Notes: a model not told the origin generated them from the sequence alone. 6,661 bases of DNA from a virus (IMGVR_UViG_2703718778_000002:1-6661), one strand, 5' to 3'; positions 1 to 6,661 are shown, counted from the first letter of the stretch. Program-made: numbers and translations.

Positions 1-28
1 GTTCAGGCCCACCCCACCAGGAGGACCC

Positions 29-54
29 GCAAAAAAGGCGGCTGGTGCCGCCTT
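29..54 (-). terminator. Rho-independent terminator downstream of the protease-capsid gene
   Basis: Plus strand 31-52 reads AAAAAA-GGCGGC-TGGT-GCCGCC; on the minus strand this is a GC-rich 6-8 bp stem with a 4-nt loop followed by TTTTTT, lying just 3' of the stop codon at 59-61. Confidence 0.6.
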
Positions 55-58
55 GTTG

Positions 59-1948
59 TCAGAGTGAATCTGTCCCGCCTGATTTGACCATACCGCGATA
101 ATCCAGAGCTGCCACACCTGCATCAATACGGACTTTCCAGGCCACGCCGTCAACGATAAAACCTTCCTGCTGTTCAAGGTAAGGCTCGTCATTGCCATCA
201 AGATAAGCCACCTCGATTGTGTCCGTTCCCTGTGCGGAAAGCATGTACCATTGTTTTTCGCTGATATCATCAAGGCGGGGATCGACGATGATATCAAGTA
301 GCTTGTGATACGGGTTAAAGATCCCGCTGTTTTTATCAGCCCCGAAAGGTGCGGTTGAGTTAATCATCTGCAACGCGCGATCTTCCAGTGCTGCCGGAAC
401 TAAAAGGAATTTAGGCGCAATATTCAGCACTTCGCCATTTTTGTCCTTCTGTGTGCGCATCAGGTGACGTGCTGCACTAAGTCCCGGTGTTGTCAGTCCT
501 GCTTCAATCAGGTTGCTGTGTTTTTTGTCAAACAGCGTTATTCCGTCAGAAAGTTTTACGTTGCCTGTAAGCACCAGATTAACCAGATTTCCCACCGTTC
601 TTGATGCTGCACGGCCCATAGCCATTGGCACCGTTGATAACTGATCAAGGTCATCATTGATTATCGCCTGGCGGGTAATGCTGAAAATATTCCCGTAAGT
701 AGCCAGCGCGATGGGTTCACCGCGATCGCTGGTGGTGATGTATTTATATTCTGCCCCTTCCGGCACTTTGTTTAACGTTGAGAAGCCATTCATACCAACG
801 CGGCGGGCTTCCCGGAAGTTTGAAAGGGAACCTTTTTTCGTCCACTGGCGGAATGTTTCGCCGCTGTGCTCCCAGCCTGCAAGCACTGATTTTTCAGCGC
901 CACCAGCAAGGATATCGGTAAAATCGCTGCTGCTGTGGGTGAATGCCGCGTTTACTATCTGCGAGCGTGTGCTGTAGCTGCCCGTGCTTATACCACGATG
1001 GGTTAATGATGCCTGTGCCATATCGAAAAGGCTCATCATGGCGTAAGGATTACCGCGTTCGGCCCGTTCGTGACCAAGACGCGCATTAAGCCCCTGACGC
1101 ATGGCATCGCCGGTTATATTGCCGTTATCCGTGTACGCGTAGTAAAGATTTGCGGGGGTGGTTTTGTTTGTTGGCGTTGATTCTTTACCCATAGCGAGTA
1201 AAAGGCGTTCGCGTGCATTCTCAACGCTACATTCTGAATCCGCAAGACAACTTATAGCCAGGTCGTTATATCTTCCGTTGAAGGTGCCAAACAATTCACG
1301 GATTCCGTTAAGTCGTTCCTGTTCGCCACTGCCAGTTTTCTGGCTGATCATGCTTTTAATTTTTTCCGGCATATTTGAAAAATCTCCGATTCGTTTTGAT
1401 TCAATTCGGGCCATTGCTGTAATCGCGGGTATAACCTCATCTGCGAAGCCGTTAGCCTTACACTCATTGCCATCCATCCAGGTTTCCGCCTCCATCATTG
1501 AGGTGATCTCCTGTTTGCTCCTGCCCGTTCTTCCGGCATAGGTTTCTGCCATCGTGTCGCCCAGCTTGTCCATCAGATCAGCAAAGCGGCGAACGTCGCC
1601 CGACACTCCGGCAGTAACACCACGGGGGGCATGTATCATCATCATCGCGTTTTCAGGCATAACGATGTGATCTCCACACATGGCAATAAACGACGCCATA
1701 GAAGCTGCCATGCCTTCAATGTGTACGATTTTTTTTGCCGGATGATTTTTCAGAGCGTTATAGATAGCCAGCCCTTCAAAGATGTCGCCACCAGGTGAAT
1801 GAATGCTCAGATGGATTTCAGACACATTACCGCACGCGTTGATCTCGTCAGTAAGTGCCGATGCCTTTACACCGTACCCGCCGATCTCGTCATAAATGCG
1901 CACATGTACAACATCTGCCATAGCCTTAATGGAAAACCATGTTTTCAT
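59..1948 (-). CDS. Prohead serine protease (ClpP/S14-like) fused to an HK97-fold major capsid protein, 629 aa
   Basis: ATG start with the upstream stop overlapping (ATGA at 1945-1948). N-terminal ~170 aa carries ClpP-like signatures: IHSPGG, GMAASMAS (candidate catalytic Ser) and MIHAP (candidate His). C-terminal ~300 aa reads like an HK97-family capsid protein (recognition from the translation, not an alignment), with a ~150-aa linker between them that could act as scaffold. Confidence 0.85.
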   Translation of the reverse strand: MKTWFSIKAMADVVHVRIYDEIGGYGVKASALTDEINACGNVSEIHLSIHSPGGDIFEGLAIYNALKNHPAKKIVHIEGMAASMASFIAMCGDHIVMPENAMMMIHAPRGVTAGVSGDVRRFADLMDKLGDTMAETYAGRTGRSKQEITSMMEAETWMDGNECKANGFADEVIPAITAMARIESKRIGDFSNMPEKIKSMISQKTGSGEQERLNGIRELFGTFNGRYNDLAISCLADSECSVENARERLLLAMGKESTPTNKTTPANLYYAYTDNGNITGDAMRQGLNARLGHERAERGNPYAMMSLFDMAQASLTHRGISTGSYSTRSQIVNAAFTHSSSDFTDILAGGAEKSVLAGWEHSGETFRQWTKKGSLSNFREARRVGMNGFSTLNKVPEGAEYKYITTSDRGEPIALATYGNIFSITRQAIINDDLDQLSTVPMAMGRAASRTVGNLVNLVLTGNVKLSDGITLFDKKHSNLIEAGLTTPGLSAARHLMRTQKDKNGEVLNIAPKFLLVPAALEDRALQMINSTAPFGADKNSGIFNPYHKLLDIIVDPRLDDISEKQWYMLSAQGTDTIEVAYLDGNDEPYLEQQEGFIVDGVAWKVRIDAGVAALDYRGMVKSGGTDSL

Positions 1949-2139
1949 AGCCAGGCTCCTAACGTTGCCCTGTACCAGTATTCAACCGCGCTGCGTGTGA
2001 TTTGTCCTTTCGTGGGCACTGGCATACCCGGGTGATTATCTTTGATGAACTGCTGATAGCGTTCGATCTTCTCCATAGTTCCGGCGTCTATGTGTACCGT
2101 GGCACTTTTATCCGGCTTTCTGGTGTTGTTCTCTGGCAT
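1945..2139 (-). CDS. Small hypothetical protein (64 aa) translationally coupled to the protease-capsid gene; possibly a small DNA-binding or assembly protein
   Basis: Internal ATG at 2139 is preceded by GGAGG with a 7-nt spacer; the ORF-track start at 2172 has no Shine-Dalgarno. Its stop overlaps the downstream ATG. Function is not recognisable from sequence; a ribbon-helix-helix-like fold is only a guess. Confidence 0.45.
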   Translation of the reverse strand: MPENNTRKPDKSATVHIDAGTMEKIERYQQFIKDNHPGMPVPTKGQITRSAVEYWYRATLGAWL

Positions 2140-2172
2140 ACATCCGCCTCCGTTTTGATTAACGGGCATCAT

Positions 2173-2330
2173 TATTGATCGATAAAAGTAATAGATAAAT
2201 CGTTTTCTACCATAAAATCAGATTATGATTTTTCTGATTATTCTCAGAGAGGCAAAGCCATTGACGCATTTTTGCTATTGAAGCAATATTAAGACTCGTC
2301 ATCCTGGCGATAAAAACTCCTTTGTCGTGT
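2173..2330 (-). promoter_or_regulatory. AT-rich leader and probable promoter/operator region of the capsid transcription unit
   Basis: Non-coding AT-rich stretch immediately upstream of the capsid unit, containing a 7-bp inverted repeat AATCAGA-N10-TCTGATT (2216-2239). No clean sigma70 -35/-10 pair was found on the minus strand, so promoter position is unresolved. Confidence 0.3.
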
Positions 2331-2370
2331 AAAAGCGCCTCCGGTAACAGCAATCGGGGGCGCTTTTTTT
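2331..2370 (+). terminator. Terminator-like hairpin oriented on the plus strand
   Basis: AAAAGCGCC (2331-2339) pairs with GGCGCTTTT (2359-2367) as a 9-bp stem around a 19-nt loop, followed by a run of T to 2370. The T-tail is on the plus strand; on the minus strand only TTTT follows. Confidence 0.35.
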
Positions 2371-2564
2371 GCGCCTGTTTTTTGTAAATGCTTTCGGGAA
2401 CGCTCCAGTGATGAACAAAAAACAACCTGATTCGACACTAAAAATTTTTATTCTTCAATATATCAATAACTTATAGTGGTGGTGATGGTGCCATAAAAAT
2501 CAAAAAATGCGCCTTTTTCCGCGCCCCTCCGCCCCGTGGACAGGCCACCCCCACCAGGAGTACC

Positions 2565-5633: not shown

Positions 5634-5638
5634 TATTT

Positions 5639-5872
5639 TTATTCTCCGGTGTGCTGTTCTTTATATCTGTCGTGCAATAGATCTATTTCTTGCAGTTCCA
5701 TTATTACAGGCTCAAGAAGCGTTATTAATGCCGTGGCAATTATTGATTTTTGTTTGTCGCGTTCATTGTCGCCAAGTGTTTCAAGCCATATGCGCAATAT
5801 TTCCAGCATGTTTTCACTGTGAGAAAGTGCAAGAAATGCGCGGTCTATTGTTTGGTGGTAAATATCACGCAT
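5639..5872 (-). CDS. Hypothetical small protein (77 aa), predicted helical
   Basis: ATG at 5872 is preceded by GAGGATG and embedded in an ATGCGTGA overlap with the upstream stop; product begins MRD. Confidence 0.55.
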   Translation of the reverse strand: MRDIYHQTIDRAFLALSHSENMLEILRIWLETLGDNERDKQKSIIATALITLLEPVIMELQEIDLLHDRYKEQHTGE

Positions 5873-6098
5873 GGCTTACATCCTCAGGAAATTTTCTTCT
5901 ATAACGCGCCTCTGCCACATATTCCGCATAATCGGCGGCGATATTCAGTACATCAAGCCCCGTTGATTTATATTCTCTCGTGGAAAGTAAGAAAAAAGCC
6001 GCTCTAATAAGTTCTGGCATTGACGAAAGCGCATCAGCCGCATCATCAGGAACGCCGGAAAATTCCTGTTTCAGGGAATTAAAACGATCATCACGCAT
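5865..6098 (-). CDS. Hypothetical small protein (77 aa)
   Basis: ATG at 6098 was chosen because it reproduces the same ATGCGTGA stop/start overlap as the next gene and the product also begins MRD. Alternative in-frame starts exist at 6110 and 6146, the latter deep inside the upstream ORF. Confidence 0.5.
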   Translation of the reverse strand: MRDDRFNSLKQEFSGVPDDAADALSSMPELIRAAFFLLSTREYKSTGLDVLNIAADYAEYVAEARYRRKFPEDVSHA

Positions 6099-6312
6099 AA
6101 CCCACCCCATTTTCACAATCAGCAACAAGAATATTTTTAGCGTCATTCAGCGACCGCGTGGCGGTGTATCGGATACATTCCAGGGCGAACTGTGTCCGGT
6201 CTTTCTGTTCTTCTCCCTGCGCAAGCTCTGCCGTGCATTCAATATCAATAAGCGCGTGCATCAGCGTAGTGAGTGCGGCGGCGGCTGCGTCCGGTGTGGT
6301 TTTATTGCACAT
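6091..6312 (-). CDS. Hypothetical small protein (73 aa)
   Basis: ATG at 6312 is preceded by GGAGGGG with a 6-nt spacer; the ORF-track start at 6369 would overlap the upstream gene by 68 bp. Confidence 0.5.
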   Translation of the reverse strand: MCNKTTPDAAAAALTTLMHALIDIECTAELAQGEEQKDRTQFALECIRYTATRSLNDAKNILVADCENGVGYA

Positions 6313-6535
6313 GGTGTACCCCTCCGCATTTTTTTTCGTTAGAAATAAGCGTTCTTCTTTCCTGTTCATCGCTCAGGAATACGCAGACCTCACCGCTAAG
6401 GCGTTTAAGTAAGCCGATGATTGCCCCTGATTCGCTGTCGGTCATCATGCCAGGGTAATCCTCTGCCAGTGCGCAAATAACTTCGATTTGGTGGGCGCGT
6501 TCTGCTGCCTGTTGTAGTGTGATTTCCTGGCTCAT
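6302..6535 (-). CDS. Hypothetical small protein (77 aa), first gene of the small-ORF cluster
   Basis: ATG at 6535 is preceded by AGGGGG with an 8-nt spacer. The ORF-track start at 6592 is a TTG codon with no ribosome-binding site and would run through a direct-repeat region. Confidence 0.5.
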   Translation of the reverse strand: MSQEITLQQAAERAHQIEVICALAEDYPGMMTDSESGAIIGLLKRLSGEVCVFLSDEQERRTLISNEKKCGGVHHVQ

Positions 6536-6548
6536 AAGCCTACCCCCT

Positions 6549-6578
6549 GGCGAATACGGGCGGCGAATACCGCAATAC
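6549..6578. repeat. Short direct repeats upstream of the first small ORF (possible operator)
   Basis: GGCGAATAC at 6549-6557 and 6562-6570, plus a partial third copy GCAATAC at 6572-6578, lying 15-45 bp upstream of the ATG at 6535. Confidence 0.3.
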
Positions 6579-6661
6579 AACCGGACGGGCAACGGCTACG
6601 CGCTTCGCGTTCCGTCCAGGCGGTTACGTGGATTATTTGAGATTCTCCGGCACTCAGTGCC

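Follow-up and report, generated by a model that had tools for sequence, protein, structure and literature searches.

What defines Gram-negative phage-inducible chromosomal islands (PICIs) is an integrase gene (int), alpA, the replication initiator gene pri, an origin (ori) 3' of pri, unidirectional gene transcription, and specific attachment (att) sites (PMC6092414; PMC10111431). EcCICFT073 of Escherichia coli is the prototype of the Gram-negative cos-type PICIs (Fillol-Salom 2018, 2019); its helper-dependent transfer and its cos sites have been demonstrated experimentally, and its pri-ori unit has been shown to drive replication (PMC6092414). Paired cos sites, PICIs embedded in genes A and C of their helpers, and a CLP_protease genotype have likewise been published (PMC6092414; PMC10111431), and capsid genes are on record for 21 of the 29 reference Gram-negative PICIs. 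A further group, the capsid-forming PICIs (cf-PICIs), is defined by additionally encoding a portal, head-tail connectors, HNH, and the small and large terminase subunits (TerS and TerL), in elements of ~15 kb (Alqurainy et al.). Here, we analyze a 6,661-bp stretch of viral DNA (IMGVR_UViG_2703718778_000002:1-6661), referred to as the window, for which a preliminary description had suggested a satellite or PICI-like element with its own capsid gene. Comparison with EcCICFT073 and with the flanks of related elements supports that view. The window is very probably the middle and right-hand part of an EcCICFT073-family Gram-negative PICI with helper-type cos sites and a capsid module, the integrase/AlpA end and the last 0.5 kb having been lost at assembly breaks.

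The replication module is that of an experimentally tested PICI

An exact-protein look-up identified the window as the entire draft contig LODG01000054.1 of assembly GCA_001609835.1, which ruled out extending the sequence beyond its ends. The preliminary description had stressed the lack of integrase, terminase, and tail genes, and indeed neither Pfam nor PHROGs found an integrase, terminase, portal, tail, or lysis gene among the window genes. However, as the window is a short contig in its full length, this absence is uninformative by itself, and the missing integrase reflects an assembly break. The co-orientation and tight translational coupling that had been described were both confirmed: all 11 called genes conform to the one-directional transcription of PICIs, all credible ones lie on the minus strand, and neighboring genes have start/stop overlaps of 4, 11, 8, 8, 4, 4, and 4 nt, with gaps of 285 bp between pri and an open reading frame (ORF) of 92 aa and 466 bp between the single-stranded-DNA-binding protein gene (ssb) and a 64-aa ORF. 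All window ORFs are intact, and Pfam, PHROGs, and NCBIfam were concordant on every named gene. The window does not have the makeup of a temperate lambdoid prophage, whether complete or defective, as none of the immunity, lambdoid replication, lysis, terminase, portal, and tail modules of such a prophage lies within it.

We located EcCICFT073 between roxA and phoQ in the CFT073 genome. Window positions 2700-6571 are 87.4% identical to its DNA and have the same gene order, from the Icd-like gene to ssb. Of 5,426 complete E. coli genomes, 1,879 have a match to some part of the window, and its match to phage records extends over 35 bp only. The replication initiator Pri, which contains the Pfam domains D5_N, DUF5906, and Pox_D5, is 90% identical in amino acid sequence to Pri of EcCICFT073. 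The iterons that had been reported are also present, directly 3' of pri, as two sets around A+T-rich DNA. Their hexamer TCTACC occurs 11 times within the array and 12 times in the whole window, for which 1.44 occurrences are expected, and none of 200 shuffles reached 12. The array is colinear with the EcCICFT073 ori, its iterons being invariant and its spacers diverged. The reported SSB and capsid unit were equally clear from profile matches (Table 1), and the terminator-like hairpin after ssb is the same hairpin that precedes cos in EcCICFT073. As a separate observation, ssb of a relative in E. coli RM13514 (L012 8600-9010), otherwise intact, contains an internal stop, and the copy in E. coli RM10466 lacks both ssb and the 92-aa gene, which suggests that the satellite SSB may be dispensable.

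Pri had been called a P4-type primase, which is accurate for only part of the protein. Its 40% identity to P4 alpha is confined to residues 326-756 of alpha, which make up the helicase and origin-binding part. Pri narrowly passes the P4-family primase C-terminal model TIGR01613 (109.7 bits, cut-off 108.7), and matches the PDB structures 7ola and 1ka8, the latter being the P4 alpha C-terminal domain. However, no counterpart of the alpha N-terminal primase domain was detectable, and the first 140 residues of Pri match nothing. These similarities could be read as a P4-like satellite that remodels the capsid of a P2-type helper, a reading with which the position of the iterons after the gene, as with P4 crr, and the resemblance of the relatives' integrase and AlpA-like proteins to P4 Int and Vis also agree. 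Against this, tblastn with all P4 proteins yielded hits only to alpha (residues 326-756), int, and orf88, so that homologues of sid, psu, delta, epsilon, and cI are absent from the window and its relatives and alpha is not represented at full length; moreover, the capsid gene and cos are of the lambdoid mEp460/VT1-Sakai type rather than the P2 type. We regard a P4-like satellite as the least credible of the explanations considered here.

Related elements occupy PICI attachment sites and prophage terminase genes

Flanks were inspected in six complete E. coli genomes that carry the capsid module of the window. Four of these carriers are chromosomal islands of ~10 kb with core genes on both sides, in which an integrase gene and an AlpA/Vis-like gene lie just upstream of the shared module and direct repeats of 16-31 bp form the boundaries of elements measuring 10.1-11.2 kb. 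One island is inserted at yejM/tRNA-Pro (yejM-luxR) and three at cspD-clpS, both previously listed as att sites of reference PICIs, and no tail, lysis, portal, or terminase gene was found in any of the four islands. The integrase, AlpA-like gene, and flanking repeats that the preliminary description had proposed to look for are present in the relatives, and the window ends before that region. The sizes of close relatives, 10.1-10.6 kb between repeats, together with the content of the window, agree with PICIs of ~10-20 kb that carry no lysis or tail genes.

The remaining two carriers, in RM10466 and in O103:H2 strain 129 (L095), are inserted within a lambdoid prophage and split terL. In RM10466 (L094 7469-19887), terL pieces corresponding to residues 17-333 and 326-700 surround a 10.3-kb insert with its own integrase; window positions 1-2577 are 99.4% identical to this insert, and its capsid fusion protein is 100% identical to that of the window. 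That prophage encodes a TerS that is 97% identical to VT1-Sakai TerS, has kept its own fusion gene (51% identical to that of the window), and contains a cos nearly identical to the outer cos of the satellite. As for the att block of the terL-embedded copy, a 10-bp repeat alone was found, and we do not regard the block as established. Both copies are helper-embedded PICIs, as described by Mageeney et al. 2023 (PMC10111431), and not prophage modules. A full prophage in the flanks had been named beforehand as the observation that would speak against a satellite. Prophage genes do indeed flank these two carriers, but they do not discriminate, because the embedded copies are self-contained insertions with their own integrase.

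The capsid fusion belongs to a satellite-only clade

The capsid module consists of a fusion of a ClpP-like prohead protease, a scaffold, and an HK97-type major capsid protein, together with a translationally coupled 64-aa ORF. The module was found in 151 complete genomes of E. coli, with identities of 95-99.9%. The closest phage copies of the fusion are ~51% identical over their full length and occur in mEp460, cdtI, CP-1639, 1720a-02, VT1-Sakai, and several phages that convert their hosts to production of Shiga toxin (Stx) 2. A scan of species-representative genomes yielded 77 loci, for which context typing and a neighbor-joining tree cleanly separated satellite from phage fusions, the satellite fusions forming one clade. 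Every hit of ≤52% identity sits in a terS-terL-portal-fusion-tail prophage module, while six hits of 57-62% identity (two in Kluyvera and one each in Yersinia, Buttiauxella, Moellerella, and Rahnella) clade with the E. coli copies, and several of these six loci have a PICI-type Pri or integrase nearby. This satellite-only clade spans six genera. Furthermore, all satellite fusions, and no prophage fusion, have directly upstream of them a homologue of the 64-aa ORF, at 39-70% identity. The fusion is under strong purifying selection, with dN/dS values of 0.06-0.10 in three of the four E. coli pairs compared (the fourth, a near-identical pair with 12 differences, gave 0.41), and its ClpP Ser and His motifs are conserved. 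Satellites have long carried both the fusion and its 64-aa partner, and selection has maintained them. Relative to enterobacterial phage fusions, satellite fusions have 16 fixed differences, ten of them at residues 308-387 near the scaffold/capsid boundary, and lack ~13 residues just after the protease domain (residue ~207), all of which we treat only as a hint.

One alternative explanation is that the locus is a decaying lambdoid prophage remnant, i.e. leftover replication and head genes without a life of their own. The phage type of the capsid fusion and of the cos sequences, the location of some copies inside prophages, and the relatives with an ssb pseudogene or no ssb at all could be cited in its favor. 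On the other hand, three different insertion sites are occupied by the same 10-kb arrangement, complete with an integrase of its own and att repeats; the window ORFs are intact and the fusion is strongly constrained; the fusion falls into a satellite-only clade with just 51% identity to any phage copy; the replication module is that of a tested PICI and not of lambdoid phages; and the prophage-borne copies split terL as insertions into a prophage that retains its own fusion gene. We therefore consider a remnant very unlikely. Slightly less probable again is a cf-PICI that makes complete heads by itself and steals only tails. Such a reading can appeal to the capsid protein, maturation protease, and scaffold combined in one polypeptide, which amounts to the core of a head shell, but portal, connectors, HNH, TerS, and TerL are absent from the window and from its 10-kb E. 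coli relatives, in which the fusion is followed only by a cos and a 93-aa ORF, and cf-PICIs measure ~15 kb.

A more serious alternative accepts the PICI but not a structural fusion. According to this explanation, the fusion would be either an interference decoy that poisons helper head assembly or a spare copy for those relatives that disrupt the capsid gene of their helper. It shares most of its evidence with our interpretation and differs only in the role of one gene. Its support comes in part from EcCICFT073, whose capsid genes are dispensable for transfer, and in part from related satellites that integrate at codon ~110 of a helper ClpP-capsid gene and carry their own copy. In Kluyvera genomosp. 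1 (L016 2236-2571, 13500-15146) and Rahnella victoriana (L083 1660-1986, 13124-13201), such satellites lie inside the ClpP-capsid fusion gene of a prophage at about residue 100-110, each with its own fusion copy of ~54% identity; this insertion site corresponds to the published C:CLP_protease:110 site (PMC10111431). The fixed differences at residues 308-387 and the loss of ~13 residues could similarly mark a modified assembly partner. However, the fusion is equally conserved at chromosomal sites and in terL, where the helper capsid gene is undisrupted, and a simple decoy would not need an intact protease active site. We consider a non-structural fusion possible but on the doubtful side; the fusion is most likely a structural component of satellite-carrying shells.

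The 64-aa partner itself gave no match in a permissive Pfam scan. A single-sequence AlphaFold2 model has two helices with low confidence (predicted local distance difference test score of 64.6); it is compatible with a ribbon-helix-helix fold but not usable for such an assignment. Between the internal cos and the 64-aa ORF, window positions 2140-2404 (~265 bp) are 96-97% conserved in relatives and yielded no convincing ORF, Rfam match, or strong promoter match; this segment may contain the promoter of the capsid operon. With regard to EcCICFT073, we observed that its hypothetical protein c1501 (L005 37084-37497) shares 36% identity with the C-terminal end of a lambda-type S49 protease/scaffold protein encoded by a CFT073 prophage, so EcCICFT073 may also carry a shell set, composed of capsid, decoration, and scaffold-like genes. 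EcCIRM13514, EcCIIHE3034, and EcCI11128 were considered as reference carriers of the window variant and were rejected, as they have other capsid or replication modules.

Two cos-like sites match the presumed helper phage type

The preliminary description passed over two features, a complete cos-like site at 2405-2567 and a terminator with a cosQ heptamer at 22-54. The latter belongs to an outer cos site. Window positions 1-35 match Stx and lambdoid phages at 100% over 34-35 bp, between Rz and terS (in VT1-Sakai, the small-terminase gene), and the contig stops 3 nt short of the inferred cosN nick. In the relatives, this match extends for ~200 bp at 88-90% identity to phages into cosN and cosB, and the block ends 33-37 bp before terS in the phages and before the 93-aa ORF in the satellites. 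On the terS-directed strand, the outer block reads hairpin, T-run, GCGGGTCCT, 24 nt, and CACG/GGGCGGGCGG (the slash marking the predicted cosN junction), and its equivalent in a lambda-type prophage and in EcCICFT073 is GGGTCCT, 23 nt, and TACG/GGGCGGCGACCT. The position of cosN is independently supported by the mEp460_4F5 record, which ends with ...GGGTCCTCCCGGTGGGGTGGCCTG and begins with CCACGGGGCGGG, i.e. it is linearized within 5 nt of the homologous junction. The ends of the mEp460 record JQ182728 were rejected as cos ends, since that record is linearized at the terS start codon. The hairpin at 31-54, which a consensus terminator scan did not list, was confirmed by reading and folding (-21.4 kcal/mol, z=-3.2). 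The RM10466 genome holds three near-identical cos copies (helper, satellite outer, and satellite internal), and in a genome of this kind the contig end at window position 1 is likely to be a repeat-induced assembly break; it may alternatively be a physical cos-cut end of the sequenced DNA.

The internal site lies in the gap between ssb and the capsid genes and comprises a cosQ-like AGGTACT (2559-2565), a cosN-like CACG/GGGCGGAGGGGCGCGG (2519-2538), and a cosB-like side that reaches down to 2405. Across 168 bp, it has 91% identity to the region upstream of terS in phages 1720a-02 and CP-1639, and it also aligns with lambda-type cos. The AGGTACT version of cosQ recurs in the Moellerella and Rahnella satellites, which argues for a variant and not for decay, and satellites of other genera likewise have a cos-like site after their fusion gene. 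On its terS-proximal (cosB) side, the internal site is 83% identical to CP-1639 vs. 62-63% to VT1-Sakai and Stx2_95, whereas for the outer site the identity is 78-79% to VT1-Sakai and Stx2_95 vs. 61% to CP-1639. TerS proteins of these two phage groups have nearly identical C-terminal halves and only 55% identity in their first 70 residues. We infer that the satellite may carry one cos for each of two terminase specificity groups, CP-1639/1720a-02 and VT1-Sakai/Stx2.

Two further observations concern the internal site. EcCIIHE3034 (L013 6755), which has a lambda-type capsid module, contains an mEp460/VT1-Sakai-type cos-like site in its own ssb-capsid gap, so that a place for cos in this gap seems to be conserved among variants with different capsid modules. 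The RM10466 copy ceases to be identical to the window precisely at the internal cos site (window 2577), which, together with the absence of the ssb and 92-aa genes from that copy, suggests recombination at cos.

In EcCICFT073, RppA is a 144-aa ORF (L005 37660-38094) homologous to PDB 6hlk. No Rpp homologue was found by tblastn (E≤1) in the window or its relatives, and the variant is thus not a cos PICI of the type in which Rpp retargets a Nu1-type TerS to a PICI-specific cosB. The TerS presumed for the helper belongs to the DUF1441 family and is not Nu1-like, for which reason Rpp would not be needed. Our literature search found no paper that describes the Rpp-less double cos of this variant or gives its capsid fusion a role. 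In the relatives of the window, the 93-aa ORF starts 33 bp after the cos block, where the phage has the start of terS; it is the last gene of PICIs with different capsid modules (L001 11520-11801; L002 11519-11800; L005 38374-38655), at 82-89% identity. Based on its position, it was initially a candidate for RppA, which was rejected because it has no PDB match and the RppC homologue in EcCICFT073 is the neighboring 144-aa ORF. It likewise matches nothing in Pfam or PADLOC and does not resemble TerS. At the same position, ~200 bp after the fusion, Kluyvera and Buttiauxella satellites (L015 7433-7666; L016 11111-11281; L018 11182-11637) encode a DUF1441-type TerS homologue that is 35-41% identical to mEp460 TerS.

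Other genes of the window

The features of the window are listed in Table 1. The Icd-like gene occupies the same position as in EcCICFT073 and other relatives, and the four small ORFs next to it are syntenic with small ORFs of EcCICFT073 and have no match in Pfam, NCBIfam, or PADLOC. The preliminary description had spoken of a regulator-sized small-ORF cluster here (6661-5639). The cluster is real, but size is no evidence of regulation, and only the Icd-like member can be named. The stop of the DUF4222 gene overlaps the start of pri by 4 nt, coupling the two translationally. The 92-aa ORF is coupled to ssb; an alternative 109-aa reading of it would begin within the iterons. The window contains no tRNA, an Rfam search of it returned nothing at E≤0.1, and PADLOC found no defense-system match in it. 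The P4-type immunity RNAs reported for some PICIs would presumably fall upstream of the window.

Table 1. Features of the 6,661-bp window, in order along the minus strand
Feature	Position	Strand	Basis
Icd-like gene, 3' part, cut by the contig end	6532..6661	-	NCBIfam NF033153 phage_ICD_like, E=2e-13
Four overlapping small ORFs (77, 73, 77, 77 aa)	5639..6535	-	gene calls; PHROGs of unknown function only
DUF4222 protein	5334..5633	-	Pfam PF13973, E=1.5e-24
Pri, replication initiator, 582 aa: D5_N, SF3-type helicase, P4-alpha-like origin-binding C-terminus	3589..5337	-	
Replication origin, 11 TCTACC/GGTAGA iterons in alternating pairs around A+T-rich spacers	3354..3572	.	motif count
92-aa ORF, coupled to ssb	3025..3303	-	gene call; phrog_1231
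Single-stranded-DNA-binding protein (ssb)	2606..3028	-	Pfam SSB, E=3.7e-16; phrog_44
Terminator-like hairpin and T-run after ssb	2568..2590	-	read from sequence
Internal complete cos-like site ('type A') in the ssb-capsid gap	2405..2567	-	phage alignment
64-aa ORF coupled to the capsid gene	1945..2139	-	phrog_4934
ClpP-like prohead protease/scaffold/HK97-type major capsid fusion, 629 aa	59..1948	-	Pfam CLP_protease and Phage_capsid_4; NF045540, 888 bits
Intrinsic-terminator-like hairpin after the capsid gene, GGCGGC-ACCA-GCCGCC and T6	31..54	-	read from sequence; fold
cosQ half of the outer cos site ('type B'), GGGTCCT at 22-28	1..28	-	phage match

A proposed life cycle and its consequences

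The architecture of the element, its kinship with a tested PICI, cos sequences of the helper type, the embedding in matching phages, and the constraint on the capsid gene were all directly observed, and they can be combined into the following scheme. A helper lambdoid phage would induce the island, which would then be excised by the integrase and AlpA-like protein, encoded outside the window and found in each close relative inspected, as judged by homology. Pri would bind the TCTACC iterons 3' of its own gene and replicate the element with assistance from the element's SSB, replication having been demonstrated for the Pri-ori unit of EcCICFT073. The DUF1441-TerS/gpA terminase of the helper would cut and package the concatemer at the helper-type cos sites of the satellite, with the internal site serving the TerS specificity of CP-1639/1720a-02 and the outer site that of VT1-Sakai/Stx2. 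The fusion and its 64-aa partner would build satellite shells or co-assemble into them, and the helper would provide portal, terminase, connectors, and tails. As helpers, lambdoid phages of the mEp460/VT1-Sakai type are likely, Stx-converting ones among them.

Several points weigh against this interpretation. The window itself lacks an integrase, alpA, an att site, and the cosN of the outer site, and its assignment to the EcCICFT073 family rests on relatives at 87-99% identity. Induction, packaging, and transfer of the capsid variant are presumed from sequence, the two-specificity reading of the cos sites draws on covariation in a few phages, and the neighbor-joining tree of the fusions carries no bootstrap support values. 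In addition, the lambda-type capsid and decoration genes of EcCICFT073 are dispensable for its transfer and interference, and its DNA is carried in phage-sized heads; the structural role of the window fusion is consequently tentative, and the capsid role is the least secure step of the scheme.

A still more specific and quite tentative proposal, which we hold to be rather unlikely, is that the variant is an intermediate between classical PICIs and cf-PICIs. It would supply only its own, possibly smaller, shell, formed by the one fused polypeptide with aid from the 64-aa protein, and would take portal, connectors, tails, and terminase from the helper. Its two cos sites, each suited to a different TerS specificity, would let it use two groups of lambdoid phages, including Stx phages. 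If this proposal were true, the element could lower the yield and spread of Stx phages in enterohemorrhagic E. coli. Gram-negative PICIs are common; they carry genes from one strain to another and interfere with the phages that serve as their helpers. Here, the capsid gene and cos point to a helper group with Stx1- and Stx2-converting members, and among the listed carriers of the capsid module, several have enterohemorrhagic serotypes (O103:H2, O111:H8, and O145:H28). Should the element interfere with Stx phages, it could affect both the production and spread of Shiga-toxin phages. The results also bear on why most Gram-negative PICIs keep a capsid gene that is dispensable in one tested model, and an intact, constrained fusion kept in satellites across six genera is a good candidate for probing a structural role.

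Comparison with known satellites

With P4, the element has in common a helicase and origin-binding domain resembling that of alpha, iterons located downstream of this gene, and a related Int and Vis/AlpA; it differs in having no sid, psu, delta, epsilon, or cI, no detectable alpha primase domain, and a presumed helper that is lambdoid and not P2-type. SaPIbov5, a cos-type PICI of Staphylococcus, similarly uses the helper's cos site instead of a TerS and encodes a diverged HK97-type capsid homologue, Ccm (PMC6092414). However, it belongs to an unrelated Gram-positive lineage with a bidirectional layout, its Ccm has no fused protease, and its formation of small capsids has been demonstrated, whereas small capsids of the window element would be hypothetical. 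The cf-PICI EcCIEDL933 (Alqurainy et al.) has int, alpA, and rep in common with classical E. coli PICIs and, like the window variant, its own capsid protein and maturation protease, but the portal, connectors, HNH, TerS, and TerL are absent from the window variant. The helper-embedded PICIs of PMC10111431 are matched by the two of six E. coli carriers that lie in prophage gene A (terL), but not by the four at chromosomal PICI att sites, and the sole CLP_protease-bearing PICI genotype described there is located at tRNA-Ile2 and has no alpA, unlike the relatives examined here. The greatest similarity is to EcCICFT073, which has one-directional genes, two cos sites, a capsid module after ssb, the same iteron ori, and, in common with the relatives of the window, a last ORF of 93 aa. 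Their capsid modules are different, as EcCICFT073 encodes a lambda-type E-like capsid protein, a decoration protein, and a scaffold-like protein, whereas the window encodes a ClpP-scaffold-capsid fusion. EcCICFT073 likewise combines a lambda-type cosN (GGGCGGCGACCT) with a foreign cosB and needs RppA to retarget a Nu1-type TerS, whereas the window family has no Rpp, an mEp460/VT1-Sakai-type cos whose cosB side is common to the phage, and a presumed helper TerS of the DUF1441 family.

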